DNA of 64,000 nt from an uncultured Eubacteriales bacterium (lineage in GTDB: Bacteria; Acidobacteriota; Aminicenantia; Aminicenantales; Aminicenantaceae): the NCBI GenBank assembly GCA_964400735.1, contig CAYNVQ010000003.1, positions 1 through 64,000 of the forward strand, read 5' to 3'. The position numbers were made by a program, and so were the translations under genes. The notes beneath the pieces were generated by a model. The model saw nothing but the letters and a program-made list of their open reading frames with translations. It searched no databases and was not told the origin of the DNA. Shown in pieces: positions 8,182 to 52,709 of the stretch (the first letter of the stretch is position 1; every line of letters begins with the position of its first letter).

Positions 8182-8727
8182 ATGTTAAAAAAAGCGAGAG
8201 GTTTTACACTGATTGAGTTGCTGATCGTTGTGGCCATTATCGGAATTCTTGCCGCACTTCTTATCCCCAATGCCATCACTGCCATCCAGAAGTCCAAGCA
8301 GAAAGGAACGATGAAGGACATCAACACCATCGCCACCGGCGCCGCTGACTTCATCACAGACCAGGGCTCTTGGGCCCATGCAGGTATTGCTCAGGCCGGC
8401 CCCCTTGCTGCGAACAATGATTTCATCAACGGTCTTTCCCCCTTCTATGTCAAGGTCATTCCGGTGAACGACCAATGGGGCGAACCCTTCCAGGTTTACC
8501 TCGGCGATACCATCGGAGGTTACAGGGGAATTAACGCTGTCGATGTGGGAAATGATGACTTCCTGATCGAATCGTTCGCAAGAGATAACGGCACCGACGG
8601 CTGGACCTATGACGCCACAGATGCGTCAGCTGGGATGTACATCGTCGATTCTATGGATGACTTCAACAGCGACCTGGTCCAGTGGAGCGGATCCTGGATT
8701 CATGCACCGAGAACTGCCGTTCAGTAA
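8182..8727 (+). CDS. pilA: Type IVa major pilin PilA (prepilin with N-terminal methylation motif)
   Basis: 181 aa. N-terminus MLKKARGFTLIELLIVVAIIGILAALLIP has the class III signal G|FTLIE with Glu5. A C-terminal globular domain follows. Confidence 0.85.
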   Translation: MLKKARGFTLIELLIVVAIIGILAALLIPNAITAIQKSKQKGTMKDINTIATGAADFITDQGSWAHAGIAQAGPLAANNDFINGLSPFYVKVIPVNDQWGEPFQVYLGDTIGGYRGINAVDVGNDDFLIESFARDNGTDGWTYDATDASAGMYIVDSMDDFNSDLVQWSGSWIHAPRTAVQ

Positions 8728-8770
8728 GACAAAGGCTTCAGTCAGTTCCATTTATTCGCTTTAGGGAGAA

Positions 8771-8806
8771 GGGCGATACGGGTTGAAACCGTATCGCCCT
8801 TTTTCT
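8771..8806 (+). terminator. Rho-independent terminator downstream of pilA
   Basis: GGGCGATACGG-gttgaaa-CCGTATCGCCC followed by TTTTTCT. Confidence 0.8.
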
Positions 8807-9021
8807 ATTCACCCTTTTTTTTCTTCCCATCGTTTTAAAATATCCCTCGTCTGCGTATGCCGATCCAAGCCTGCATTTCTTCGTGGAAACATGCGGGCAT
8901 TTCCAAAGTCCAAATGATTTTGTATCCGGATGTTTCTTCATCGCGATTCTGGTGGCGCTGATTCAGAACATCAAAGAACTGAAATAACGCCTATCCTGTG
9001 CTATAATGATAGCCCTCTGTT

Positions 9022-9732
9022 ATGCGGACGATCATTCTTTTCATCATCTACATTTTGATTACCATCCTTTTGATTCCCATTCTTTTTATCTGCATTCTGT
9101 TTGGGTGGTCGAAGCCTTTGATTTGGGCGGGCAAACAGGCGATGGGAATCGGCCCCCCAATACTTGGAATCCGGATCGAGGTGACAGGAAAGGATTTTGT
9201 GCATCAAGAGACCCCTTATATTTTCATGTCCAATCATTTGAGTTTTTTAGACGGCCCCCTGCTTTTTTGGGCCATTCCTCGGCCTATCCGGGTGATATTG
9301 AAAAAAGAGATCTTCAAGATTCCCGTTATCGGGCTGGGTATGCGGCAAGTTGATTTTGTTCCTGTCGACCGGAAAGGAATAAGGGGAGGGAAAAAGAGCA
9401 TCGACAGGGCTGTAAAACTGATCAAAGAAAAAGGTTTTTCTTTTCTGATTTTTCCCGAAGGAACGCGAAGCCGCGATGGAAAGTTGCAGCGATTTCGAAG
9501 GGGAGGTTTCTTTCTTTCCTTGGAAAGCCGTACAGCCATTCTTCCCATTTCGATCGAGGGAACTTTTGAGCTCATGCCTAAAGGCAGCTTTTTTGTAAAG
9601 AGAGGCCGGATCAAGATCGTTTTTCATGCTCCGGTTCATGTGGCTGCTTACGATGCGAAACGGCTCACCGAGCTTTCCGATAGGGTGCGAGATATCATCC
9701 AATCGGGTCTTGAGGCGGAAATCGGGCCATAA
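9022..9732 (+). CDS. plsC: 1-acyl-sn-glycerol-3-phosphate acyltransferase (lysophospholipid acyltransferase)
   Basis: 236 aa. N-terminal membrane anchor. HX4D motif NHLSFLD. FPEGTRS motif. Confidence 0.8.
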   Translation: MRTIILFIIYILITILLIPILFICILFGWSKPLIWAGKQAMGIGPPILGIRIEVTGKDFVHQETPYIFMSNHLSFLDGPLLFWAIPRPIRVILKKEIFKIPVIGLGMRQVDFVPVDRKGIRGGKKSIDRAVKLIKEKGFSFLIFPEGTRSRDGKLQRFRRGGFFLSLESRTAILPISIEGTFELMPKGSFFVKRGRIKIVFHAPVHVAAYDAKRLTELSDRVRDIIQSGLEAEIGP

Positions 9733-9749: not shown

Positions 9750-10310
9750 ATGAAAATCAGAAATCTCATCGAAATGCAGGCGAGAATCATCCAAGCTTTT
9801 TTTCAAGAAAAAGAGGAGCTCTTTGAACGTGCTGTAGATATGATTTCGGAACGATTGAAAGAAGGCCGAAAAATCCTCGTCTTCGGAAATGGAGGGAGTG
9901 CAGCCCAAGCCCAGCATTTTGCTTCGGAATTGGTCAATAAATTCTTGAAATCGAGACCAGCCATTCCTGCACTATCCCTTGCCATAGACTCGTCCTCTCT
10001 CACTTCCATAGCTAACGATAGTTCTTTCGAGTACGTGTTCAGTCGCCAGATGGAGGCTTTGGGGGAGGCAGGGGATATCGCGGTTGCGCTGACCACCAGC
10101 GGGAATTCGCCTAATATTTTGCGGGCCATTCAGACAGCTAGAAAGAAAGGCCTTATGACCCTAGCCTTGACAGGAGAAGGGGGTGGGGAAATCGGTCCTT
10201 TTTGCGATATTTTGCTAGATATCCCTTCACAGGAAACTCCCCGTGTGCAGGAAGCCCATCTATTCCTTCTGCATCTATTATCCCAGATGATCGAAGAGAG
10301 AGTCGGTTAA
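9750..10310 (+). CDS. gmhA: Sedoheptulose-7-phosphate isomerase (SIS domain; GmhA/DiaA family)
   Basis: 186 aa. SIS motif ILVFGNGGSAAQAQHFASE. Confidence 0.75.
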   Translation: MKIRNLIEMQARIIQAFFQEKEELFERAVDMISERLKEGRKILVFGNGGSAAQAQHFASELVNKFLKSRPAIPALSLAIDSSSLTSIANDSSFEYVFSRQMEALGEAGDIAVALTTSGNSPNILRAIQTARKKGLMTLALTGEGGGEIGPFCDILLDIPSQETPRVQEAHLFLLHLLSQMIEERVG

Positions 10311-12151
10311 CGACCCCTCCATAAACGTTCTCTCCGCGGCCTTGTTTTGGACACCCAGGGCTGGGGAGGTTTTTCGGCTGGCATCTGTTCCGCCTTCTCT
10401 GACACAGGTACGGAAACGCTCTGCTTTTTCTGGCCTTTCGCAATCTGAAAAGAGCGTTCTGCAGCACGTTGGATCTCAGGCCTGAGTCCTTCGGAGGCGA
10501 TTTCCTCGGTGAATTCTTTTCGGCCTTCTACGAGATCGGCGATGTATCTCTGGATTTGCTCTTCGGAATAGAAGCGGCGCGGATCCCACTCGTCCAGTGA
10601 CTTATCTCCACAGCGTATGATTCCTCTTGTTCCAAGAATCCCTTTTTCGTACAGGTTTGTACCCCGCAGATCTCCTCTTTGGATTTGGGCCATGAGGTTG
10701 ATGGGAACGCGTCTGACTTTTCGAATCAACCTTTTTTTCTTTTTTCCGTTTTCTTCTGTTTCTTCGATAATTTCACCCATCCCCCCTGTATTGTACTGCA
10801 AGAATTTCAGTTTTCCCGGGTAATTGTTGACGAGTGTCATAATGATTTCATAGAAACGATTGACCTTTTTGGCCCTGGGCCCCACGATAAAAGGATCTGT
10901 TCCCACGATCCTTACGGATTCTCCTGCCTTGAGGGGCTGACTGGCATAGCTATGAGTGCTTTCTCCCCAGAGATAGGCCAGAACAGCCTGTTCGGGAGTG
11001 AGTTCTTGCGCGAAACTCATGATGGTGTTTCTACGGGTGATGAAGGCGAAGATGAGTCCATCCAGTTCATCAAGGGGGGGAAGATTGATGGAGTCGGAGA
11101 AGATATCGACCTTTTTACCTTGGATTTCGACCCAGAGTTTTTTGCGCTGGAGAACGGCCCTTCCATTGGCGGTCAAGCTTTCGTCCATGAAGTCGACTTC
11201 CCCGTTAGCCTTGATCATGACGTTTTCGAAAAGAGCCGATTTATCCGTCAGAGCGTTATACATGGCTTCCTGGTATTCTTTTTCCACGTCGGTCTTGACA
11301 AAAAAGTTGTTTTCCGAGCCTAAAGCTGATCCGTCTTTCCTCAGAAATACGATATCATCTTGAGTGACGAGAGTCCTCTCTCCCTGGGCACTGTCCAGCC
11401 CCAGTTGATGGCAGGACCAGGTGGATTTTCCGGTCGCAGTCAGTCCGAACAGAAAGACTCCATAGGTCTTGAGCTTATTATCTGGATTGCGGGCCGTCAC
11501 AATTTTTGTTCCTGCATGCAGCCCGAGCATTCCTTTTTGGTCGGCTGTCCACATGGCCTGGCGGAGAAATCCTTTTTTATCCTCGCCCATATAGTCTGTC
11601 CCCAGAGCAATGTTGATATTGTATTCCGGAAGCACCAGAACCTGCTGTCTCAAAGGATGTTCCTCTGGAATGTGAATCATGATAAATTCAGGGCCAGGAC
11701 GGGCGGAGGGCTTGAACATGGTCATCCCCCACATATAAGCCAGGCGATAATTGATGAGGTCGGCCGCTGACACATAAAGATTGCAGAGAGGATTATAGAA
11801 ATCGTTTTCGCCCATTTGCCTTCGAATGTGGCAGAAAGGCATTGTCCGGATGAGATGAAGAACCTTATCCAGCTCATGCGGAGAGTTGGCAATCAGTGAT
11901 TTTTGTTCCTCAGTCGGACGAGGAAGCCGGATTTCTTCGCTCCCAAGATAGACCGTCTTGGGGGCAATCCGGCTGGATATGGATGCCCGCCAGCCGTAAG
12001 AGCCGAATTTTGTTTTTATTCCAGTAGCTTTGGCTCGTGATTCCAGCCAGCCAAGGTCTACGGGCTGGATGTTGGCTCCTTTGAGGGCGAAAGTAAGCTC
12101 CTCGGCAAATCGTTTGTAGGCATGATCGTTATAAAGGCTGTTTTCGCTCAT
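10307..12151 (-). CDS. pckA: Divergent ATP-dependent phosphoenolpyruvate carboxykinase (PckA family)
   Basis: 614 aa. Has the PckA hallmark blocks YMGEDKKG (compare YGGEMKKG), kinase-1a FGLTATGKST (compare GLSGTGKTT) and kinase-2-like LVTQDDIVFLRKDG (compare LIGDDEHGWDDDG). Overlaps the upstream gene by 4 nt. Confidence 0.6.
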   Translation of the reverse strand: MSENSLYNDHAYKRFAEELTFALKGANIQPVDLGWLESRAKATGIKTKFGSYGWRASISSRIAPKTVYLGSEEIRLPRPTEEQKSLIANSPHELDKVLHLIRTMPFCHIRRQMGENDFYNPLCNLYVSAADLINYRLAYMWGMTMFKPSARPGPEFIMIHIPEEHPLRQQVLVLPEYNINIALGTDYMGEDKKGFLRQAMWTADQKGMLGLHAGTKIVTARNPDNKLKTYGVFLFGLTATGKSTWSCHQLGLDSAQGERTLVTQDDIVFLRKDGSALGSENNFFVKTDVEKEYQEAMYNALTDKSALFENVMIKANGEVDFMDESLTANGRAVLQRKKLWVEIQGKKVDIFSDSINLPPLDELDGLIFAFITRRNTIMSFAQELTPEQAVLAYLWGESTHSYASQPLKAGESVRIVGTDPFIVGPRAKKVNRFYEIIMTLVNNYPGKLKFLQYNTGGMGEIIEETEENGKKKKRLIRKVRRVPINLMAQIQRGDLRGTNLYEKGILGTRGIIRCGDKSLDEWDPRRFYSEEQIQRYIADLVEGRKEFTEEIASEGLRPEIQRAAERSFQIAKGQKKQSVSVPVSEKAEQMPAEKPPQPWVSKTRPRRERLWRGR

Positions 12152-14508
12152 TTGAGATATTCTTCTTCGGTCTCCCCTTTCATCACGCGTTTGATGTCCT
12201 CGGTAGAGGCAACTCCACTGTTGAATAAGTAACAGGTTGTATTCTGCAGAAGCTGGCGGAAAAAATTCTTTTGGTATTCGATTCTTTCAGGAGAGGTCAT
12301 CAAGAGATGGGGATTGTAGAAGGGCTGGCTTTTCGTCGGTCCGAGGGCCGTTTTCCATCCGGGACTTTCTCCGGACTCAAGGATTCTAAGGGCGTCATCG
12401 ATTTCCAACCTGATCAAAGGAGGAGAGGAGGTATCGGTGCGCAGGATAAAGACCCAGCGCAGCTGGGTCCTTTTGACATGCTTAGCCGGACCTTCGATCC
12501 AGTATGGGTCGAGGAGAGCCACCGCCCTTTTGGAAGCCTTATAACAGAAAGGAGAACCCCGGTCGAGACGGCAATCATCGGCACGAAGACATTCGGCGTT
12601 TTCGCAATTATCTTTGCGGATGATGACATTTTCGCATTTGCTGTTGTCCAGGAGTGGAGCCAGGTGGGTGTAAAATTCGACGGCTTGGGTAGGAATGAGG
12701 AGCTTCCTTTCGACGGAATCGGCAAGAACCCGAGCTCCCGAGAAGCGGGCGAAGAGAATGTCATTGGAGAGGAGACGGAAGTCCTTTTCCTGAAGTAGAG
12801 CATAAAAAAGATCTGACTTCTTCGTTCCCTTGGGGCCGACAAGGACCAATCCTTGCCCTTCCACATCGGCTGACATGCCACGCAATGTATAGGTGCCGAA
12901 CTGTCGCTCGGAGACATCCATGACCAGACCCAGGGCGAGACTTCTTAATGGGGAGTAGTTATCCGTGTTAACCAAGATACCGGTTTTCGACTCGGAATTG
13001 TAGAACCCTCGTGATTCCCGGCCAGGGATTCCATCCACTGCATAGATGATTCCATGAGGCTCGAGTTCGGCCTCCAGTTGGGCCGGATACCAGTTTTCAA
13101 TCCAGAAATCATTTAGATGGGATACATTGGTCCGAAGCTGGACAATTACGCCGTTTATGTTGGCGTTCCACTCAAAATAGTTCTCGTAACTGAAAGCCTC
13201 CTCCATCTCGGTCACGAGCGCATCACGGACAGGCAGGGAAATCGAGGAGTCAACGGGTACGGATGTCTTTACACGGGTGCGCGTGTTGTTAAGAGTGATG
13301 CGTCTGACTTTCTTGGGTGTTTTGAGCTGGGAGACGGCATGGATTATCCTGTCCATACCCTTTTCGAGATTCCCCATCGAGGTGGCATAGGATAGGCGGA
13401 TGCATCTGTCAGCCCCGAAGGCATCTCCCGGCACGATGGCCACCTTGGCCTCCTTGAGAAGATAGTAAGCGAGACCGTAGGAGTTGCGGATGACCATGTT
13501 GTTAAATTCCTTCTCGTAGGTGACGGAAAAGTTGGGAAAAAGGTAGAAGGCGCCGTCAGGTTTATTGCAGGAAACACCGGGGATACTCTGGAGCCTCATC
13601 AAGGCATAATTTCTTCTCCTCTGGAATTCTGAAACCATTTTGGAGACCTCGTGCTGAGGCCCCTTCAAGGCCTCTAAACTGGCCTTCTGAGAAATGGAAC
13701 AGGGATTGGAAGTGCTGTGGCTCTGGATTTTGGCCATTCCGTCTATGATGTCGGAGGAACCCGCAGCGAACCCGATTCTCCATCCAGTCATAGAATAGGA
13801 TTTGGATACCCCGTTGATCACGATGGTTCTTTTCTTGATCTCATCTCCTAGGGAGGCGAAACTGTAGAAACGGAAATCGTCATAGACCAGCTTCTCGTAG
13901 ATTTCATCCGCGATAACATAGATATCTTCCTCCAGCACAACTTCCGCCAAAGCCTCCAGGGCCTGTCTTGGGTAAGCCGCTCCGGTAGGATTGGAGGGAT
14001 TGTTCAAGATAAAGGCCTTTGTAGCCGGAGTAATGGCTGCCTTCAGCTCATCCGGCCTCAACAGGAATCCATTCTCTTCCTTGGTGGGAACGATCACGCC
14101 TTTTCCTCCGGCAAGAGAGACGGCGTGGGGATAGGTTACCCAATAAGGAGCAGGGATGATGACTTCATCTCCCAAGTTGACCAATGCCTGCACGAGATGG
14201 TAGAGGGAACTTTTGGCACCCGAGGAGACGATGATCTCGTTTTTATCGTATTCCAGGCCCTGGTCTTCCTTTAACCTTTGGATGATCGCCTCCTTAAGGG
14301 CCGGGATCCCATCGTTCTGGGTGTACTTGGTGAAATTTTCCTCGATAGCCCGGATTCCCGCCTGCTTCACATTCTCTGGGGTCGGAAAGTCCGGCTCCCC
14401 GACGCTGAGATCGATGACATCGATACCCTCGGCCTTCATGGACTTAGCCTTGGCCGAGACCTTCAAGGTTGGAGATTCTCCGATCTTGTTTGCTTTTTCT
14501 GATACCAT
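12148..14508 (-). CDS. Fusion protein: N-terminal class-I PLP aspartate/aromatic aminotransferase plus C-terminal HprK-like (PEPCK-fold) P-loop domain
   Basis: 786 aa. Residues 1-400 read as AspAT-like (LSVGEPDFPTP, NGVSKSYSMTGWRIG with the PLP lysine). The C-terminal 380 residues have the P-loop LVLVGPKGTKKSDLFYALLQEKDFRLLSNDI, which parallels HprK GDSGVGKSE-ALEL...G-LVADD. A 5-Cys cluster follows. Confidence 0.6.
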   Translation of the reverse strand: MVSEKANKIGESPTLKVSAKAKSMKAEGIDVIDLSVGEPDFPTPENVKQAGIRAIEENFTKYTQNDGIPALKEAIIQRLKEDQGLEYDKNEIIVSSGAKSSLYHLVQALVNLGDEVIIPAPYWVTYPHAVSLAGGKGVIVPTKEENGFLLRPDELKAAITPATKAFILNNPSNPTGAAYPRQALEALAEVVLEEDIYVIADEIYEKLVYDDFRFYSFASLGDEIKKRTIVINGVSKSYSMTGWRIGFAAGSSDIIDGMAKIQSHSTSNPCSISQKASLEALKGPQHEVSKMVSEFQRRRNYALMRLQSIPGVSCNKPDGAFYLFPNFSVTYEKEFNNMVIRNSYGLAYYLLKEAKVAIVPGDAFGADRCIRLSYATSMGNLEKGMDRIIHAVSQLKTPKKVRRITLNNTRTRVKTSVPVDSSISLPVRDALVTEMEEAFSYENYFEWNANINGVIVQLRTNVSHLNDFWIENWYPAQLEAELEPHGIIYAVDGIPGRESRGFYNSESKTGILVNTDNYSPLRSLALGLVMDVSERQFGTYTLRGMSADVEGQGLVLVGPKGTKKSDLFYALLQEKDFRLLSNDILFARFSGARVLADSVERKLLIPTQAVEFYTHLAPLLDNSKCENVIIRKDNCENAECLRADDCRLDRGSPFCYKASKRAVALLDPYWIEGPAKHVKRTQLRWVFILRTDTSSPPLIRLEIDDALRILESGESPGWKTALGPTKSQPFYNPHLLMTSPERIEYQKNFFRQLLQNTTCYLFNSGVASTEDIKRVMKGETEEEYLK

Positions 14509-14529
14509 GGCTGACCTTATCTGGAAAGA

Positions 14530-15942
14530 TTATTCTTCTTTTTTTTCTTGGTTCTCTGAAGCCAACTTCCTCTTCAGGTATTCCTTCAGGTCCACTCCAG
14601 TCAGCGATTTGACCACGTCTGGCATCTGAGCCAGGATGTCTGCCACTTGAGAGGTGATTTTAGTCGTCCCCAGGTTTTTGTCACTGCCTATGACCACGAT
14701 CTTGTCCACTTTGGAAAGGGGTTCTGAGACAGCTTTCGCCAAGTCAGGCAGCATTTTGAGATACATCTCGAGGATAGCGGCCTGGTTGTATTTTTCCCAA
14801 GCTTGGGCTTTTTTTAGCATGAATTCGGCCTCGGCCAGACCCAATTGTTTGATTTTTTCCGCTTCGGCGATCCCTTCCAATTTTTTTGCATCTGCCTTGG
14901 CCCTCGCTTCAGCCTGGATACGGAATTCCTCAGCCTCGGCCTCGGCCTTCATCTGATATTTTCGAGCGTCTGCCGGCTTGATGACATTTGCATCGAGCTC
15001 TTTTTCTTTGCGGGTAATCTCGAGTTCATCTATTTTTATGGCTTCTTGTTTCTCGATGAGCCTAACTTTGGCCTCCTCCTTTTTCAAGTCTTGAGATAGG
15101 CGGGATCGTTCTATTTCGTAGGCGAAATCGGCCTGGGCTTTCTTCTCGTTGACCAAAACTTGAGATTGCGCCTTCTTCGCTTCATTTTCCCATTGGGCTT
15201 TGGCAATCAATGCCTCGGCAGCCAAACGGGCAATCTCTCCTTCTTTTCTCGCTTCCGAGGATTTTATGGTGGCTTCTTTCTCGGTCTCGGCTTCCGCGAT
15301 GGCTGCGTCTCTTTTCGCTGCGGCAATCTGAGGTTTTCCAAGAGCGTCCAGGTAGCCCTGGGTGTCGCTGATGTCTTTGAGGGCAAACGACATCATGTTC
15401 AGGCCCATACGGGAAAAATCGCTGCGTGCGGCCTCGATGACCTTATCCGAGAAATCTAGCCGGTCCTTGTATATTTCTTCCACGGTCATTGTTCCCATTA
15501 CCGCTCTCATCTTGCCTTCGAGCACGGTTTCAGCCACAGACCTGATCCCTTCTTTTCCCACCCCCAGGAATTGTTCAGCAGCAATCTGGATGGAATGATC
15601 CGCGGAATCGATTTTGACTTGGGCCACACCCTCGGCCATAAGAGGAACGCCGCCCTGGGTGAGAACTTCGGGGGTCTTGATGTTTATGGTGATGGCTTCC
15701 ATCGGAAGGATGTTGACCGTTTCCAGAAAGGGCAAGACGAAAGTGCCTCCTCCTAATCGATACCGATAGCCGATTTTTACCTTTGTCCCGTCTGGGGCAA
15801 TCACGGTGCGTTTTCTTCCCCCGGATATAATGAGGACTTCATTTGGCCCCACTTTTCTGTATTGTTTAGCTAGAAGAAAGGCTAAAAATGCCAATAGGAG
15901 AACGATGATACCGATCAGGATCAATTGAGATATTAAAGTCAT
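14530..15942 (-). CDS. Flotillin-like SPFH/band-7 protein (YqiK/FloT family)
   Basis: 470 aa. N-terminal transmembrane helix, an SPFH domain, and a long coiled coil with AEAE/EA repeats. Lies 21 nt upstream of the aminotransferase fusion gene. Confidence 0.8.
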   Translation of the reverse strand: MTLISQLILIGIIVLLLAFLAFLLAKQYRKVGPNEVLIISGGRKRTVIAPDGTKVKIGYRYRLGGGTFVLPFLETVNILPMEAITINIKTPEVLTQGGVPLMAEGVAQVKIDSADHSIQIAAEQFLGVGKEGIRSVAETVLEGKMRAVMGTMTVEEIYKDRLDFSDKVIEAARSDFSRMGLNMMSFALKDISDTQGYLDALGKPQIAAAKRDAAIAEAETEKEATIKSSEARKEGEIARLAAEALIAKAQWENEAKKAQSQVLVNEKKAQADFAYEIERSRLSQDLKKEEAKVRLIEKQEAIKIDELEITRKEKELDANVIKPADARKYQMKAEAEAEEFRIQAEARAKADAKKLEGIAEAEKIKQLGLAEAEFMLKKAQAWEKYNQAAILEMYLKMLPDLAKAVSEPLSKVDKIVVIGSDKNLGTTKITSQVADILAQMPDVVKSLTGVDLKEYLKRKLASENQEKKEE

Positions 15943-16176
15943 CTGAACCTCCTTTTTATTAGGGCGATTAAAGAGGGAATGATATTTGTGGCTTCATATT
16001 GTATTTTAACCGTTCCAGTTATGATGTGAAATAAAATAGTTTATCCTGATATCCGGTTATTTTCAAGAAAATTATAGGCTCCGTCGACATATCAGAAACC
16101 CTCCTCTTTTGGGATTCCTCTGTTTAAGGTCTTGAAGGCAGGTCGATGCCTATTGGGTCATTATGGACTAGATTGT

Positions 16177-17106
16177 TCACACAATTTTTTGGAAGTAAGC
16201 GATCGTTTCCTTGAGCCCTTCCTCTAGGGAAACATGAGGCTGCCAACCGAGTTTATCCTTGGCCAATGAGATATCAGGACATCGGCGGTCAGGGTCATCC
16301 TGGGGCAAAGGTTTATGGATGACCGGGGAGGAACTTCGCGTAAGAGAAATGATTTTATGCGCCAGGTCCAGAATGCTGAATTCGGAAGGATCCCCGAGGT
16401 TAACCGGTCCGGTAAAATCGTGGCTGTCCATCATGGCTACAAGGCCTGATACGAGGTCCGTGACATAACAAAAAGAACGGGTCTGGCTTCCCTCCCCGTA
16501 GACGGTTATCGGTTCGCTCCTGAGAGCCTGGATGATGAAATTACTAATCACTCTTCCGTCATCCACCGCCATCCTGGGTCCATAGGTGTTGAAAATACGG
16601 GCGATTTTGATGTCGACATTATTTTGGCGGTGGTAATCCATCATCAAGGTTTCAGCCACTCGCTTGCCCTCGTCATAACAGCTGCGGGGTCCTATGGGAT
16701 TGACATAGCCCCAATAGGTTTCCACTTGAGGGTGCACTTGGGGATTTCCGTATACCTCGGATGTGGAAGCGAGGAGTATTTTGGCCTTTGTTCTTTTAGC
16801 CAATCCCAGCATGTTGATGGTGCCCATCACATTGGTTTTGACGGTTTTGATGGCATTGTGTTGGTAGTGGATAGGGGATGCGGGACAGGCAAGATGAAAG
16901 ATTTGATCGACTTCCACAAAAAGAGGATGAATGATATCATGCCGAATCAACTCGAAATGAGAATGGGGAAGAAGATGTCGGACATTATTCTTGCTTCCGG
17001 AAAAAAAATTATCGACACATATGACATCATCCCCTTTTTCCACAAAATATTCACAGAGATGACTTCCCAAAAATCCTGCGCCGCCTGTAATGAGGGTCCG
17101 GTTCAT
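16177..17106 (-). CDS. UDP-glucuronate decarboxylase / UDP-xylose synthase (SDR-family NAD-dependent epimerase/dehydratase)
   Basis: 309 aa. Rossmann motif [10 protein letters not shown]. YxxxK catalytic signature. UXS-like length. Confidence 0.7.
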
Positions 17107-17169
17107 ATTATTCTCCCTTAATTCCTTTTGCCCTGCATAATATTTTGACTGGCCTATTCGAACCGCGGA

Positions 17170-17913
17170 TTATCCGTAAGCCATGAACATAAGGCTTTTC
17201 TGTTTGAGAAGGTCTTTTTGTGCGGCGACGAGCTCCGCTATGCCTTTGCTGGCTAAACTCAACAGGGTGTTGAAGTCTTTTTTTGTGAAGGGCGATTTTT
17301 CGGCTGTTACCTGGATTTCCACGATTTTTCCTGTGTCGGTCTTGACGACATTCATATCGGTATCCGCTGATGAGTCTTCGAGGTAATCCAGGTCGAGGAA
17401 AAACTCGCCGTTGACGATGCCGACGCTAACGGCACTCACTAGGTTTTTTAGAGGCATCCTGTCGATAATCCCCTCTTCCATCAATTTCCTGAGAGCAAGA
17501 GCCAAGGCGATACACCCTACAGTGATGGAAGCTGTCCTGGTCCCTCCATCGGCCTGAATGACATCACAGTCAATGGTGATGGTCCTCTCTCCAAGAATGG
17601 TGAGATCGGTTACCGTCCGGAGCGAGCGGCCGATGAGGCGTTGAATCTCTTGAGTACGTCCGGATGGCCGGCCGAGGTTTCTCTCTCGGACGGACCTTTT
17701 TTCTGTAGAACATGGGAGCATGCCGTATTCGGCCGTGATCCAGCCGGTCGCACTTCCTTTGAGAAAAGAGGGGACTTTTTCCTCAATGGTGGCGGCTGCC
17801 ACGACTTTCGTCTTTCCGATTTCGATAGAGGCCGATCCATCGGCGAATTCAAAATAGTCTGCCTTCAAAGACAAGGGGCGCAAGGCGTTAGATGAACGTT
17901 TGGCGGCTCTCAT
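17170..17913 (-). CDS. rph: Ribonuclease PH
   Basis: 247 aa. Conserved RNase PH blocks, including GRTQEIQRLIGRSLR and TAEYGMLP. Confidence 0.85.
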   Translation of the reverse strand: MRAAKRSSNALRPLSLKADYFEFADGSASIEIGKTKVVAAATIEEKVPSFLKGSATGWITAEYGMLPCSTEKRSVRERNLGRPSGRTQEIQRLIGRSLRTVTDLTILGERTITIDCDVIQADGGTRTASITVGCIALALALRKLMEEGIIDRMPLKNLVSAVSVGIVNGEFFLDLDYLEDSSADTDMNVVKTDTGKIVEIQVTAEKSPFTKKDFNTLLSLASKGIAELVAAQKDLLKQKSLMFMAYG

Positions 17914-18830
17914 TATTCTTTGTTAGAAATTCCCTCTTCCTCCGGCCTGGTTTTCCAACGGTTGTGAAACCAGAACCAGAAGTCGGGGTGTTCCTCAATT
18001 TGATCCTGTATAATCTTAGTGCATAATTGTGTGATTTTCAATACATCTTCCTTTTCATCTCCCGATAGGCCGATCTTGAGGGGCGGGCCGATTTTGAGGC
18101 GATAGCAGCACTTGGATGCAGGATAACAAAAAACTGGGACAAGAGGAGCCATTGTTTTGAGATGAAAAATAGCCAGGCTGGGGGTGGTGGCCGCTGCCTG
18201 GCCAAAAAAGTCGATAAACACGGCTTGATGGCGTAAGACATTTTGATCGATAAGGATGGCCACCATGGCCTTAGACTTCAGGGCACGGAGGATGGGCTTG
18301 GCGGCAAATTGTTTATAGATAACCTCGGCGCCTAGACTCTCTCTTGTTCTCATGAGTTCTTTCTCTAGCAACCTGTTATCCAAGGTGCGGGCGACAACAT
18401 AGAGCTTTCCTAGCTGGGAGATGCAGGCGGGGGCTAACTCCCAATTTCCATAATGAGCGGAAAAGAGCAGCGCGCCTCTACCTTGCTGAAGAGCCTTGTC
18501 CAAATGTTCTATTCCTTCCACGATCAAAAGTCGCCGGACTTTATCAAGGCGTTGATGCTGCATCTTGAGAACCTCAAAGAGGACACGCCCCAACTGTTTG
18601 AAGGAAGCCTTGGCTGTTCTCTTTCGGTCCGCGACAGACAGCTTTGCACCTAAGGCGATACTCAGGTTGACCAAAGCGACATCCCGATGTTTTTTATCCA
18701 CATAATAGACCATTGATCCGAGCGTCTCGCCCAAAAATTGGCAGAATGAACGGGGAAGAATAAAAAGAGGAACTTTGAGCAAGAGGAAACCCAGATATTC
18801 CGCTGCTTCCTTAATGCGATGGCTGGTCAT
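17913..18830 (-). CDS. lpxL: Lipid A biosynthesis late acyltransferase (LpxL/HtrB family)
   Basis: 305 aa. LpxL-family architecture with the C-terminal HPDFWFWFHNRWK signature. Adjacent to lpxK. Confidence 0.75.
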   Translation of the reverse strand: MTSHRIKEAAEYLGFLLLKVPLFILPRSFCQFLGETLGSMVYYVDKKHRDVALVNLSIALGAKLSVADRKRTAKASFKQLGRVLFEVLKMQHQRLDKVRRLLIVEGIEHLDKALQQGRGALLFSAHYGNWELAPACISQLGKLYVVARTLDNRLLEKELMRTRESLGAEVIYKQFAAKPILRALKSKAMVAILIDQNVLRHQAVFIDFFGQAAATTPSLAIFHLKTMAPLVPVFCYPASKCCYRLKIGPPLKIGLSGDEKEDVLKITQLCTKIIQDQIEEHPDFWFWFHNRWKTRPEEEGISNKE

Positions 18831-18837
18831 GGATATT

Positions 18838-19827
18838 TCAATCTCCCTTCAAGGAGGATGCCATATCTTGGTAGAAGTCCTCATCCACCTGAACGCTTAT
18901 CCGGTTGTAGCATACGGATACAGGAGGATCCTTTACCGGGCTCTTCAGCTTAAAAACGTCCTTTTCTGTGGTAAGGATGACATCTGCGTCGATTTTTTGA
19001 ATGGTCCTGTTTATCTTCTTCATTGAAGAAAGCGGATAAGAATGATGATCGGGAAATTTCAGGAAATGAAGGGGATTGATTCCACTTTCCTCTAGGAGTG
19101 AGAAAAATCCATCCGGACGGGCAATGCCGCAAACGGCCAAGATGCGCCTTTTCTTCAAGGTTTCCACCGGGACAGATTGGTTGTCTTCAGAGGAAAAAAA
19201 TCCTTCGTTTTTGATCGAGTAAAGGAAGACCTTGGCTTGAGGGAATCTTTTCCTTATTCTGTTTTTGGAATCCGGACTGCCGCTTTCCTTTACCAAGATA
19301 AAGTCTGCTCTTCGAAGCGAACAAATGAATTCTCGAAGGAGGATCTTTTCTTCCGGATCGAAGAGGACAACGTCATGATTCCGGTGCAGTCGTCTATGCT
19401 GGAATCCATCATCCAAGATAAACACGTCAAAGCCATCCTGCTCGGCTTTTCGGCAGGAGTCCAGTCGGCTTGTGCCCACGTATATTCCAGCCTGTGGGAT
19501 ACGGCGCGATACCATAAATGGCTCATCTCCGGCTTCGTGCCAAGACCCGTATACTCGTTTACCATCTGAGAGAACCCCACCGGTTCTCTCCCACTTTCCT
19601 CTATAGCCTCTTGTGATCAGGGCAGGTTTGAGGCCTTTATCCAGAAGGACAGAGAGTAGCTGCATGGCTAGAGGGGTTTTTCCCGTCCCACCGAAGGCGA
19701 TATTTCCCACACTGATGACAGGCTGGAGCACGCCTTGAGTTTTTAAAAGTCCCGAGTCATAGAGGGAGCGATAGATCCAACTTCCAGCCCGGAAGATAAA
19801 GGTTAAGGGATACAGAACCCAATTCAT
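18838..19827 (-). CDS. lpxK: Tetraacyldisaccharide 4'-kinase
   Basis: 329 aa. P-loop SVGNIAFGGTGKTP is diagnostic of LpxK. Confidence 0.85.
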   Translation of the reverse strand: MNWVLYPLTFIFRAGSWIYRSLYDSGLLKTQGVLQPVISVGNIAFGGTGKTPLAMQLLSVLLDKGLKPALITRGYRGKWERTGGVLSDGKRVYGSWHEAGDEPFMVSRRIPQAGIYVGTSRLDSCRKAEQDGFDVFILDDGFQHRRLHRNHDVVLFDPEEKILLREFICSLRRADFILVKESGSPDSKNRIRKRFPQAKVFLYSIKNEGFFSSEDNQSVPVETLKKRRILAVCGIARPDGFFSLLEESGINPLHFLKFPDHHSYPLSSMKKINRTIQKIDADVILTTEKDVFKLKSPVKDPPVSVCYNRISVQVDEDFYQDMASSLKGD

Positions 19828-50458: not shown

Positions 50459-50929
50459 TTGAAAATCCAAAGCTTATTAACCCCAGACATGGTCTTGCTG
50501 GAGGTGGAATCCCGAGAGCGAGATGAAGTTTTAAAGGAGATGGTGAGTTTTTTAAAACAGAAGGAAAAAATTTCCAAGGAGAAAGAACTGTACGAAAAAT
50601 TGATCCAGAGGGAAGAATTGGGAAGCACGGCTATCGGTGATGGCGTCGCTATCCCACACTGCAAGATGAAAGGTATAAAAAACCCGGTTGTTATGCTTGC
50701 CGTTTCCAAAAAAGGCGTCGAATTTCATTCTTTGGACGGACATCCGACCTTTGTATTTTTTCTGGTGGTGTCGTCTCCTGATAACCCGAGCTTGAACCTC
50801 CAGATCCTGGCCGCCATTGCTCACCTGGTAAGGAAAGCGGATTCTTTTTTGAAAAAAATACTGGAAGCCAAAAGCATATCGAATATTCTGGATATCATTA
50901 AAGAAGAAGAAGAGAAAATAAATGAGTGA
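50459..50929 (+). CDS. ptsN: PTS IIA-like nitrogen regulatory protein (EIIA-Ntr)
   Basis: 156 aa. Active-site region GDGVAIPHCK. Confidence 0.8.
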   Translation: MKIQSLLTPDMVLLEVESRERDEVLKEMVSFLKQKEKISKEKELYEKLIQREELGSTAIGDGVAIPHCKMKGIKNPVVMLAVSKKGVEFHSLDGHPTFVFFLVVSSPDNPSLNLQILAAIAHLVRKADSFLKKILEAKSISNILDIIKEEEEKINE

Positions 50930-51833
50930 AGGAGGGGAAGACTCCCTTCTAGTCCGGCATTTTTATAAACTGGCCAAGGTTCCATTGAGACTTTCTTCTG
51001 TTTCGGGCAGAACTGGATTTTCGAGAATGCTGCATACTCCTTATCAGACGGCTGATTGGCTGCCCGTGCAAATTTGGGGTAGGAGAGAACTGCAAAAAAT
51101 TGAAAATCTGCCACCCGCTCAGAGAAAAAAGTTCATCCAAGGGGAATTCCAAAACTTTTCCTGTTGCGTTTTATCCGACAACCTCTCTTTTCCCCCATCA
51201 GCCAGAGAGATAGCCCTCGAGAATAAATTGGCCTTGTTCAAGTCCGAACTTTCAAGATCCAGACTGAAAACACGCTTGAAAGAGCTGTTTTCTAGTCTGT
51301 ATAATTCATCGCTCACTCTATCCGGAGGATTACTTCAGATATTTGGAATAGGCGTGCTCATTTTGGGGGATAGCGGAGTGGGGAAAAGCGAAAGTGCCTT
51401 GGAGCTTATTGCAAGAGGGCATATTTTCATTTCTGATGATGTCGTCAGGATTCAAAAGGACGTTAATGGAAATCTGAGCGGTACCGCTGTTTCGATTTCT
51501 CGCAATTTCATGGAGATCAGAGGTTTGGGGATTATCAACGTCGCTAAGATTTTTGGAAAAAAATCCATCAGTCCGAAATCAAAAATTGAGCTGATCATCA
51601 TGCTCAGAAAATGGGAAGAAGGAAAGGACTATGACCGCCTTGGACTTGAGATTCCTGAGACCTATAAAATATTAGGAGTAAGTGTACCCAAAATTTCCAT
51701 TCCTGTGGCGCCCGGAAGGAATATTTCCACGCTTATCGAGGTGGCCTGTAAGGTATTCTTATTGAAGGAAAAAGGATATCTTGCTGCTCGGGAGATCACA
51801 GAGAAATTGGAGCGAGCTCTGTCGCGTCGGTGA
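50922..51833 (+). CDS. hprK: HPr kinase/phosphorylase
   Basis: 303 aa. P-loop GDSGVGKSESALEL...GHIFISDD. Confidence 0.85.
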   Translation: MSEGGEDSLLVRHFYKLAKVPLRLSSVSGRTGFSRMLHTPYQTADWLPVQIWGRRELQKIENLPPAQRKKFIQGEFQNFSCCVLSDNLSFPPSAREIALENKLALFKSELSRSRLKTRLKELFSSLYNSSLTLSGGLLQIFGIGVLILGDSGVGKSESALELIARGHIFISDDVVRIQKDVNGNLSGTAVSISRNFMEIRGLGIINVAKIFGKKSISPKSKIELIIMLRKWEEGKDYDRLGLEIPETYKILGVSVPKISIPVAPGRNISTLIEVACKVFLLKEKGYLAAREITEKLERALSRR

Positions 51834-51836
51834 GGT

Positions 51837-52709
51837 ATGAATAAAAGAAAGTCGAAAGACATCCGGTTCTTGATCATCACAGGACTTTCCGGTTCAGGGA
51901 AGACTGTGGTCAGTCGGTTTTTGGAAGATCTAGGGTATTACTGTATCGATAATCTTCCTGCCAAGCTCATCCCCCAATTCGTGGACTTATGGTCCAGGCA
52001 AGAAGTCGAGATCGAAAAGGTCGCTCTTGTCGTGGATATAAGAGAAGCTGGATTCACGACGGAATTCCCGAAAGTTTATCAATCAATCCAGGACAAAATT
52101 AAACCCTATTTAATGTTTCTTGAGGCATCTGATGAAGTATTATTCAAGCGCTTCAGCGAAAGCAGGCGGCCTCATCCTATGGCCAGCACAAAATCGGTGA
52201 GAGAGGGGATAACGCTGGAAAGAAAGGGGTTGGCGCAAGTAAAGAATTTAGCCGACGAAGTCATCGATACTTCCTCCACCAACTTGGCAGAACTTAGGGA
52301 AATTTTAACCAGGCGTCTGTTGGAAAAAAAGGGAGTGGGTCTTCAGGTGATCGTGATCAGCTTCGGATATAAATACGGTATTCCCCTCGATTCTGACTTG
52401 GTTTTCGATACCAGGTTTTTGCCGAATCCCCATTATATTGACAGCATGAGGAACAAGACAGGAAAAAGCAGGGCGGTGAAGAAGTATGTCCTCCAAGCCA
52501 AAGAAACGCAGTCATTCCTGATAAGACTCTTGAGATTTGTGGACTATCTGATGCCGAAATTCGAGGATGAGGGAAAAACCTATTTGACTATCTCCATAGG
52601 TTGTACAGGTGGAAAACACCGGTCTGTCGTTCTCGCCAATAGACTGAAAGAACATCTCGTCAGTCACAACTTCAAAACGCGGGTTTATCACCGAGACATT
52701 TACAAATAA
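51837..52709 (+). CDS. rapZ: RNase adapter protein RapZ (YhbJ)
   Basis: 290 aa. P-loop GLSGSGKT. Position in the rpoN locus. Confidence 0.8.
   Translation: MNKRKSKDIRFLIITGLSGSGKTVVSRFLEDLGYYCIDNLPAKLIPQFVDLWSRQEVEIEKVALVVDIREAGFTTEFPKVYQSIQDKIKPYLMFLEASDEVLFKRFSESRRPHPMASTKSVREGITLERKGLAQVKNLADEVIDTSSTNLAELREILTRRLLEKKGVGLQVIVISFGYKYGIPLDSDLVFDTRFLPNPHYIDSMRNKTGKSRAVKKYVLQAKETQSFLIRLLRFVDYLMPKFEDEGKTYLTISIGCTGGKHRSVVLANRLKEHLVSHNFKTRVYHRDIYK

Follow-up and report, generated by a model that had tools for sequence, protein, structure and literature searches.

A minus-strand gene cluster of Aminicenantes encoding a flotillin, an aspartate aminotransferase fused to an apparently degenerate PEPCK-fold domain, and a divergent PEPCK

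We describe three adjacent minus-strand genes in a 64,000-nucleotide (nt) stretch of DNA from an uncultured member of the Aminicenantes (contig CAYNVQ010000003.1, assembly GCA_964400735.1), referred to below as the window. They encode a flotillin, a fusion of an aspartate aminotransferase with a second domain, and a divergent phosphoenolpyruvate carboxykinase (PEPCK). The second domain of the fusion is our main subject; it appears to be a PEPCK paralogue that has lost its catalytic residues (pseudo-PEPCK), and it is best read as an accessory module of the PEPCK clade to which the third gene belongs. The features of the locus are listed here, with protein lengths in amino acids (aa).

15943-16176, minus strand: 234-nt spacer 5' of the flotillin gene, with promoter-like hexamers and a ribosome-binding site.
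14530-15942, minus strand: flotillin, 470 aa, FloT-like, built of a hydrophobic anchor at the N-terminus, an SPFH/Band_7 domain and the flotillin coiled coil (Pfam, NCBIfam).
13327-14508, minus strand: intact class-Ib aspartate aminotransferase, fusion residues 1-394, possibly also active on prephenate (Pfam, NCBIfam, PDB).
12148-13326, minus strand: pseudo-PEPCK domain, fusion residues 395-786 plus the stop codon, a shrunken and apparently catalytically degenerate PEPCK fold (structure model, profile comparison).
12814-12837, minus strand: decayed P-loop GPKGTKKS of that domain (GLSGTGKT in PEPCK), with lysine in place of the glycine, G253, that precedes the Walker lysine.
12544-12636, minus strand: five-cysteine insertion of that domain, C-x8-C-x4-C-x6-C-x8-C, CENVIIRKDNCENAECLRADDCRLDRGSPFC, in a hairpin between an ENV motif and the R333 equivalent.
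10307-12151, minus strand: divergent PEPCK, 614 aa, with all catalytic residues kept (Pfam, NCBIfam, hhalign).
10310-10456, minus strand: C-terminal extension of the PEPCK, 49 aa, ending in a conserved basic-aromatic motif, RPRRERLWRGR (10310-10342).

The open reading frames (ORFs) of the trio are tightly packed at 14530-15942 (470 aa), 12148-14508 (786 aa) and 10307-12151 (614 aa). A gap of 21 nt (14509-14529) separates the flotillin gene from the fusion gene, and the fusion and PEPCK genes overlap by 4 nt (12148-12151), so that the packing given in an earlier note on this DNA is correct to the base. The ORFs are not chance occurrences, since they are long and have hundreds of homologues. The spacer upstream of the flotillin gene contains a strong ribosome-binding site, AAAGGAGG, and the hexamer pair TTCACA-16-TAAAAT at 16030-16003, a consensus match only, of a kind whose counts do not exceed those in shuffled controls. 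The promoter and terminator scan, with counts likewise not above shuffled controls, found no terminator-like site on the minus strand inside the cluster, and Rfam recognised no RNA family in the operon or in its leader. Co-transcription of the three genes is plausible from this layout.

The first gene was called a flotillin in the earlier note, and domain searches bear this out. Band_7 matches with 100 bits and Flot, at the border, with 27.9 bits against a cut-off of 27; the N-terminus, read directly from the sequence, is hydrophobic. Against the NCBIfam FloT equivalog the protein scores 408 bits, below the cut-off of 700.

Residues 1-394 of the fusion form a complete aminotransferase, which the same note had assigned to class I and which we place in class Ib. 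Pfam Aminotran_1_2 covers residues 30-388 (268 bits), and the region aligns end to end with PDB 1j32 (E 4.5e-109) and with the Thermus enzyme 1bjw (E 1.7e-91). In the alignment with 1j32, the lysine that binds pyridoxal phosphate (PLP; SKS/AKT), the NPSNPTG, DEIY and RLSYA motifs and the Ib-type lysine (GAK/GGK) are all kept, and catalytic activity of this half is well supported by these residues. Aspartate is its likely substrate; the bifunctional aspartate/prephenate aminotransferases 5wmh and 6f77 score almost equally, and the best NCBIfam equivalog, PRK06107 (aspartate transaminase), gives 444 bits against a cut-off of 617.

The third gene encodes a PEPCK that carries the PckA blocks and is about 70 aa longer than the canonical enzyme, as the earlier note had reported; the exact excess over E. 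coli PckA (540 aa) is 74 aa. PEPCK_ATP (PF01293) matches with 89.4 bits (cut-off 26.5), with only residues 169-339 aligned. The pckA model TIGR00224 gives 35 bits against a cut-off of 590, and the best NCBIfam subfamily, NF006821, 278 bits against 369. By hhalign the protein nevertheless aligns with E. coli PckA over 469 columns at a probability of 96.8%. Using the residue numbers of E. coli PckA, whose sequence is identical to PDB 1aq2, we found that R65, Y207, K212, K213 and H232 correspond to R61, Y187, K192, K193 and H212 of the window protein, and K254, T255, D268, D269, K288 and R333 to K242, S243, D265, D266, K286 and R331. The motifs read GTDYMGEDKKG, GLTATGKST, TQDD and ANGR, and relatives at 75-88% identity occur throughout the Aminicenantes. 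The alignments identify the protein as a real PEPCK of a divergent clade, predicted to be active. The nucleotide that this clade uses may be ATP or another: genes for nucleoside diphosphate kinase (NDK) are neighbours in related loci, and an archaeal homologue, P0430, comes close to the PEPCK_GTP threshold (23.1 bits against a cut-off of 23.8). The C-terminal extension is restricted to the bacterial unfused PEPCKs and is absent from archaeal fused forms, described below, and from short 545-aa forms. Its consensus is SKxRPRRxRFWRGR, with the core RP[RPK][RK] in all 45 of 45 complete bacterial ORFs and variants in L001 and L084. The tail could serve to dock the PEPCK on the fusion or to bind membranes.

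The C-terminal domain of the fusion opens with a conserved LNNTxTRVK about 8 residues past the last aminotransferase helix. For fusion residues ~395-786, we found no Pfam family (PF01293 and PF00821 included), no NCBIfam model and no significant phmmer match in the PDB. An AlphaFold2 model of the domain, built with 32 homologues, is confident (predicted local distance difference test, pLDDT, 87.9; predicted template modelling score, pTM, 0.86). When this model was searched against the PDB with Foldseek, all of the top 35 matches were ATP-PEPCKs (E 2.5e-17, TM score 0.69, ~400 columns), followed by GTP-PEPCKs, and the model has the two-lobed PEPCK fold. Profile-profile comparison links the domain to the family of the third gene (E 8e-5) and to E. 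coli PckA (E 6.6e-4). The earlier note had looked to structure searches for HprK or PEPCK likeness, and they reveal likeness to PEPCK; it had described the domain as HprK-like on the strength of its P-loop. That HprK likeness is real but weak: hhalign aligns the domain profile with the window's own HprK over 47 columns round the P-loop (E 4.8e-4), a genuine local match that reflects the P-loop core common to HprK and PEPCK. The HprK C-domain (PDB 1jb1, 1ko7) is not the best structural match, and Hpr_kinase_C (PF07475, gathering score 33.3) has no match in the window's fusion and sub-threshold matches of 13-28 bits in relatives. On the evidence of the model, the complete domain represents a second paralogue of PEPCK and not an HprK module. 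The separate canonical hprK that the note had placed at 50922 is genuine (50922-51833, Hpr_kinase_C 200 bits). It lies in a ptsN (EIIA_2)-hprK-rapZ segment (50459-52709), the usual regulatory phosphotransferase system (PTS) module of the rpoN region, which is unrelated to the finding.

Comparison with PckA indicates how far the catalytic apparatus has been lost. In the hhalign profile alignment, the domain covers PckA residues 111-456, and residues 1-110, R65 among them, are missing. The kinase-1a motif YGGEMKKG reads YNSESKTG, in which K213 has become threonine; the strand of His232 reads LRG, with the arginine invariant across 32 sequences; and the kinase-2 motif DD reads ND. The equivalent of R333 is valine in the window and histidine or tyrosine in other Aminicenantes. 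The invariant arginine of the QLRTN motif was considered as a counterpart of R65 and rejected, as hhalign places its hairpin on PckA ~120-140. The P-loop quoted in the earlier note is present and reads GPKGTKKS; orthologues have HAPNVKKE, GPRGLSRG or GSSENDIA there, and the loop is abolished, for example, in P0239 and P0251. By alignment, the fused domain thus does not retain the set of K213, H232, R65, R333 and GxxGxGK[ST]. The rest of the domain is strongly kept (EWNANING..QLRTN, FWxENWYPA, SERK, LDPxWIGG, FFNPH and N[ST]G). Since the P-loop is lost in orthologues and the remainder is conserved, the function kept in the domain would not depend on phosphoryl transfer.

To place these losses in the wider family, we compared three architectural groups.

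Stand-alone relatives: IHG at the His232 position; P-loop APTGTGKST; HSDDW and SRAxLD present; one with an intein right after GKS.
PEPCK-fused archaeal forms: arginine at the His232 position; P-loop often destroyed (GSSENDIA, SRTDGGRT); no cysteine insert and no ENV motif.
Aminotransferase-fused forms: mostly arginine at the His232 position; P-loop GPKGTKK[ST], GxGR[GS] or HAPNVKKE; cysteine insert usually present.

In none of the fused sequences examined do the histidine and a GK[ST] P-loop occur together. The five-cysteine cluster noticed earlier is present; such an insertion is found in most aminotransferase-fused forms and several stand-alone relatives, whereas the archaeal PEPCK-fused forms lack it and the Zixibacteria-type copies have lost it for the most part.

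The stand-alone relatives are 350-570-aa 'mini-PEPCK/HprK-like' proteins of archaea and high-GC bacteria (P0245, P0247, P0252, P0258, P0264, P0291, P0295; context in L088). Their IHG, GTGKST, HSDDW and SRAxLD motifs are intact, and by these motifs they look like active kinases; their annotation is 'hypothetical', and no Pfam family covers them. One 754-aa relative, P0314, carries an intein at ~208-393 (Intein_splicing, 61 bits) right after its GTGKS P-loop. Inteins typically insert at this point in functional NTPases.

An active phospho-transfer module, as the earlier note had suggested, is therefore unlikely on these alignments, and the fused domain appears catalytically degenerate. In that reading, the domain would work as a P-loop kinase or phosphotransferase in the manner of HprK/P and act on a small molecule or a protein with ATP or pyrophosphate, for instance so as to control PEPCK or the aminotransferase. 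The reading draws on the Aminicenantes copies, which keep GxxGTxK[ST], the second kinase-2 aspartate and invariant ERK and ENV motifs, on the apparently fully active stand-alone relatives with their intein-bearing member, and on the sub-threshold Hpr_kinase_C matches. However, the equivalents of the manganese ligands are replaced (K213 by T, H232 by R), as is the Walker glycine by lysine (G253K); the equivalents of R333 (valine here) and R65 are lost, the latter with its whole segment; and clear orthologues dispense with the P-loop (HAPNVKKE, GSSENDIA) though the remainder of the domain is conserved. We consider such an activity quite improbable.

A different role is suggested by the distribution of the domain. 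Searching 1.84 billion representative sequences with the domain profile returned 315 relatives, among them P0251 (899 aa), in which a pseudo-PEPCK module precedes a complete PEPCK from the clade of the window's third gene. With P0251 as the query, we then recovered this module-PEPCK arrangement in at least 95 clusters of proteins 880-910 aa long, from Hod-, Hel-, Loki- and Freyarchaeota, Bathyarchaeia, Altiarchaeota, Hydrothermarchaeales and a few bacteria. Each bears the bare annotation 'phosphoenolpyruvate carboxykinase': these archaeal ~890-aa proteins (P0251, P0385-P0479; loci L086 and L087) are pseudo-PEPCK/PEPCK tandems whose N-terminal 350 residues are unannotated. We discarded a MAFFT alignment that combined the archaeal fusion with module and PEPCK as sequences of their own, since it misaligned the paralogous halves. 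The strongest argument that the module works with the adjoining PEPCK is that it is the N-terminal domain of a PEPCK elsewhere. On this sequence evidence, the pseudo-PEPCK is best read as a domain dedicated to this PEPCK clade, whether as accessory or as adaptor.

We also surveyed the neighbourhood of the fusion. A relative is encoded in 370 species-level genomes. The survey drew on 82 genome loci and on 80 metagenome loci, the latter chosen round a Zixibacteria-type query. Aminotransferase and module form one ORF in 79 of the 82 genome loci, and the three exceptions look like frameshifted assemblies. Flotillin, fusion, PEPCK and often NDK are kept together in ~165 loci of Aminicenantes and of Zixibacteria-, Calditrichota- and Latescibacteria-like lineages, in four gene orders.

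Aminicenantes: flotillin, fusion, PEPCK.
Zixibacteria-like lineages: flotillin, fusion, NDK, PEPCK.
Calditrichota-like lineages: flotillin, fusion, PEPCK, NDK.
Latescibacteria-like lineages: PEPCK divergent from flotillin and fusion.

The most invariant neighbour is the flotillin gene: at 124 of 126 loci it stands directly 5' of the fusion, the median gap being 24 nt. PEPCK lies at most 900 nt downstream of the fusion in 94 of the 122 loci with enough sequence. Because this neighbourhood survives reshuffling across phyla, inherited synteny is insufficient to account for it, and a functional linkage of all partners, the flotillin included, is indicated; the linkage proposed in the earlier note is thus borne out by the survey of co-occurrence for which it had called. 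The association of flotillin and fusion is real. One Calditrichota contig (L085, JBHOUP010000021.1) carries two fusion copies in opposite orientation, whether through inverted duplication or as an artefact of assembly: a truncated one of 609 aa after the flotillin gene, and one of 776 aa that is followed by PEPCK and NDK.

It could be argued that these genes are merely co-regulated for amino-acid-based gluconeogenesis or anaplerosis, with no assembly of their products and with the flotillin riding along in the operon without any relation to them. Genes for successive steps of a pathway often share a transcript although their products form no complex, no link between flotillin and PEPCK or between flotillin and an aminotransferase was found in the literature searched, and the pTM of an archaeal fusion model, given below, speaks neither way on the packing of its halves. 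We nevertheless regard mere co-regulation as improbable, given the constancy with which flotillin precedes the fusion across four or more lineages in spite of the reshuffling of its other neighbours, and given the covalent module-PEPCK fusion in archaea, which argues for physical proximity.

The module might instead act on the aminotransferase itself, as an allosteric or oligomerisation domain that senses PEP, oxaloacetate or a nucleotide and does not bind PEPCK. Many polar residues are invariant despite the apparent loss of catalysis, the linker to the aminotransferase is very short, and the fusion persists at loci without an adjoining PEPCK. There is also a precedent at the same metabolic node: in the malic enzyme MaeB, according to a 2020 review of the node, an inactive phosphotransacetylase domain mediates regulation (PMC8100219). 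This explanation leaves two observations unaccounted for, the module-PEPCK fusion in at least 95 archaeal clusters without any aminotransferase and the persistence of PEPCK nearby through four rearrangements, and we think it rather unlikely.

Building on the computed domain identities, the catalytic residues kept and lost, the archaeal fusion and the conserved neighbourhood, we infer a physical binding of module to PEPCK, a hand-over of oxaloacetate, a direction of flux and a role for flotillin as follows. The pseudo-PEPCK, an N-terminal domain of PEPCK in many archaea, would have moved onto the aminotransferase in these bacteria. A very short linker ties the aminotransferase covalently to an apparently non-catalytic copy of the PEPCK fold, and the next gene supplies the real PEPCK. 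Oxaloacetate made from aspartate and 2-oxoglutarate could then be passed directly to PEPCK and converted to PEP and CO2; equally possible is the reverse, in which PEP carboxylation would conserve a nucleoside triphosphate and be followed by aspartate synthesis. That the pseudo-PEPCK is an adaptor docking the aspartate aminotransferase onto PEPCK for the interconversion of aspartate, oxaloacetate and PEP is, in our estimate, an evenly balanced proposition.

This proposal can be extended to the remaining partners. Flotillin may place or organise the aminotransferase-PEPCK assembly at the membrane, and its association with the fusion, together with the basic-aromatic tail of PEPCK, hints at membrane placement. 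The earlier note had raised a possible tethering to flotillin membrane microdomains, an idea to which the constancy of flotillin as a neighbour lends indirect support. From the NDK genes in the clusters of sister phyla, it would seem that the nucleotide used by PEPCK is of importance, and NDK would there service the nucleotide pool of that step. The full picture would be a membrane metabolon between aspartate and PEP, organised by flotillin, with a dead PEPCK paralogue as adaptor, NDK for the nucleotide and the PEPCK tail as a docking or membrane peptide. In this complete form we put it forward tentatively and consider it rather doubtful.

Several points weigh against the adaptor and metabolon proposals. 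The complex of aminotransferase and PEPCK is itself a prediction, and the AlphaFold2 model of the natural archaeal fusion P0251 (pLDDT 85.7), with a pTM of 0.66 only, speaks neither for nor against packing of module against PEPCK. At 13 of 80 loci with ample two-sided flanks, no PEPCK lies within 8-10 kb. For the short 545-aa members of the PEPCK clade, a separate gene for the accessory module was sought nearby and none was found; because these forms have no module in their vicinity, it would be accessory and not essential to PEPCK. The Aminicenantes copies of the domain, with the Lys-Ser/Thr pair of the P-loop and the second kinase-2 aspartate retained, may bind a nucleotide or even have residual catalysis. 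The H232 and R333 equivalences come from sequence alignment through intermediate relatives and not from superposed coordinates, and the aminotransferase subgroup also includes prephenate aminotransferases (5wmh, 6f77).

The genes that flank the cluster have no obvious metabolic link to it. A convergent gene for a SIS-domain (GmhA-like) protein (9750-10310) overlaps the 3' end of the PEPCK gene by 4 nt (10307-10310); in relatives without an adjoining PEPCK, such as L002, the SIS gene directly follows the fusion. Both flanks, 16177-19827 and 8182-9732, carry cell-envelope functions. Pfam identifies a NAD-dependent epimerase/dehydratase, the SIS-domain protein and an acyltransferase in the window, and RNase PH, a lipid A acyltransferase and LpxK are suggested solely by synteny with L002. 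The ORF at 8182-8727 begins with a type-IV-pilin-like leader, read from the sequence.

The PEP-pyruvate-oxaloacetate node, to which PEPCK and aspartate aminotransferase belong, is among the most studied of metabolic junctions. All parts of the operon belong to known superfamilies, and no description of the fusion architecture was found in the literature searched. Neither Pfam nor NCBIfam has a model that covers the pseudo-PEPCK domain, in keeping with the earlier view that the fusion is not a described enzyme; public records name it 'pyridoxal phosphate-dependent aminotransferase' and its stand-alone relatives 'hypothetical protein'. The 2020 review names only ATP-, GTP- and pyrophosphate-dependent PEPCKs, and a term search there gave no mention of an accessory PEPCK domain (PMC8100219). 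If the adaptor proposal holds, a new pseudoenzyme domain outside Pfam would accompany an entire clade of PEPCKs in organisms that abound in sediments (Aminicenantes, Zixibacteria, Calditrichota, Latescibacteria, Bathyarchaeia and Asgard archaea). The fusion would then offer a natural, testable case in which labile oxaloacetate is channelled between two enzymes, and bacterial flotillins would have a specific metabolic client. If the metabolon exists, its flotillin would be the first in bacteria, within the literature searched, to be dedicated to a central-carbon enzyme complex, and the pseudo-PEPCK would be a widespread undescribed accessory domain of the PEPCKs of Asgard archaea, Bathyarchaeia and several bacterial candidate phyla. 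Metabolic reconstructions of these uncultured lineages would be affected too; at present they label the fusion just an aminotransferase and the long archaeal form just a PEPCK.

Each part of the cluster can be set beside a known system. The flotillin shares with bacterial FloT the layout of membrane anchor, SPFH domain and flotillin coiled coil, but it stays under the FloT equivalog cut-off and has an enzyme fusion of central metabolism as its conserved operon partner, an arrangement not found for flotillin in the literature searched. The aminotransferase half aligns with the class-Ib aspartate aminotransferases 1j32 and 1bjw and the bifunctional 5wmh and 6f77 (E 1e-91 to 1e-109) and keeps the PLP lysine and substrate-binding residues; it differs in its C-terminal PEPCK-fold domain, which no described member has, and in falling below the NCBIfam equivalog cut-offs. 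Compared with PckA (1aq2 of E. coli, 1ii2 of T. cruzi; PF01293), the fused domain lacks ~110 N-terminal residues and the manganese and substrate ligands and gives no PF01293 match, whereas the PEPCK of the third gene is far below the pckA equivalog cut-offs and has insertions and the 49-aa basic tail. MaeB, as the review presents it, is likewise an enzyme of the PEP-pyruvate-oxaloacetate node that carries a dead copy of another enzyme for regulation and assembly (PMC8100219); the likeness is one of analogy only, as folds and partner are unrelated and there is no homology to the fusion. The ~890-aa archaeal PEPCKs (for example P0251, P0385 and P0432) are uncharacterised proteins in which the module is joined to PEPCK and not to an aminotransferase, without the cysteine insertion, the ENV motif or the N-terminal NNTxTRVK, and with no flotillin neighbour in the sole context inspected (L086). 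Their N-terminal 350 residues nevertheless correspond to the fused module, with the same WNANINGxIIQLRTN, FWxENW, LRG, SERK, LDPxWIGG, FFNPH and NT motifs, and their C-terminal part falls within the PEPCK clade of the window's third gene.

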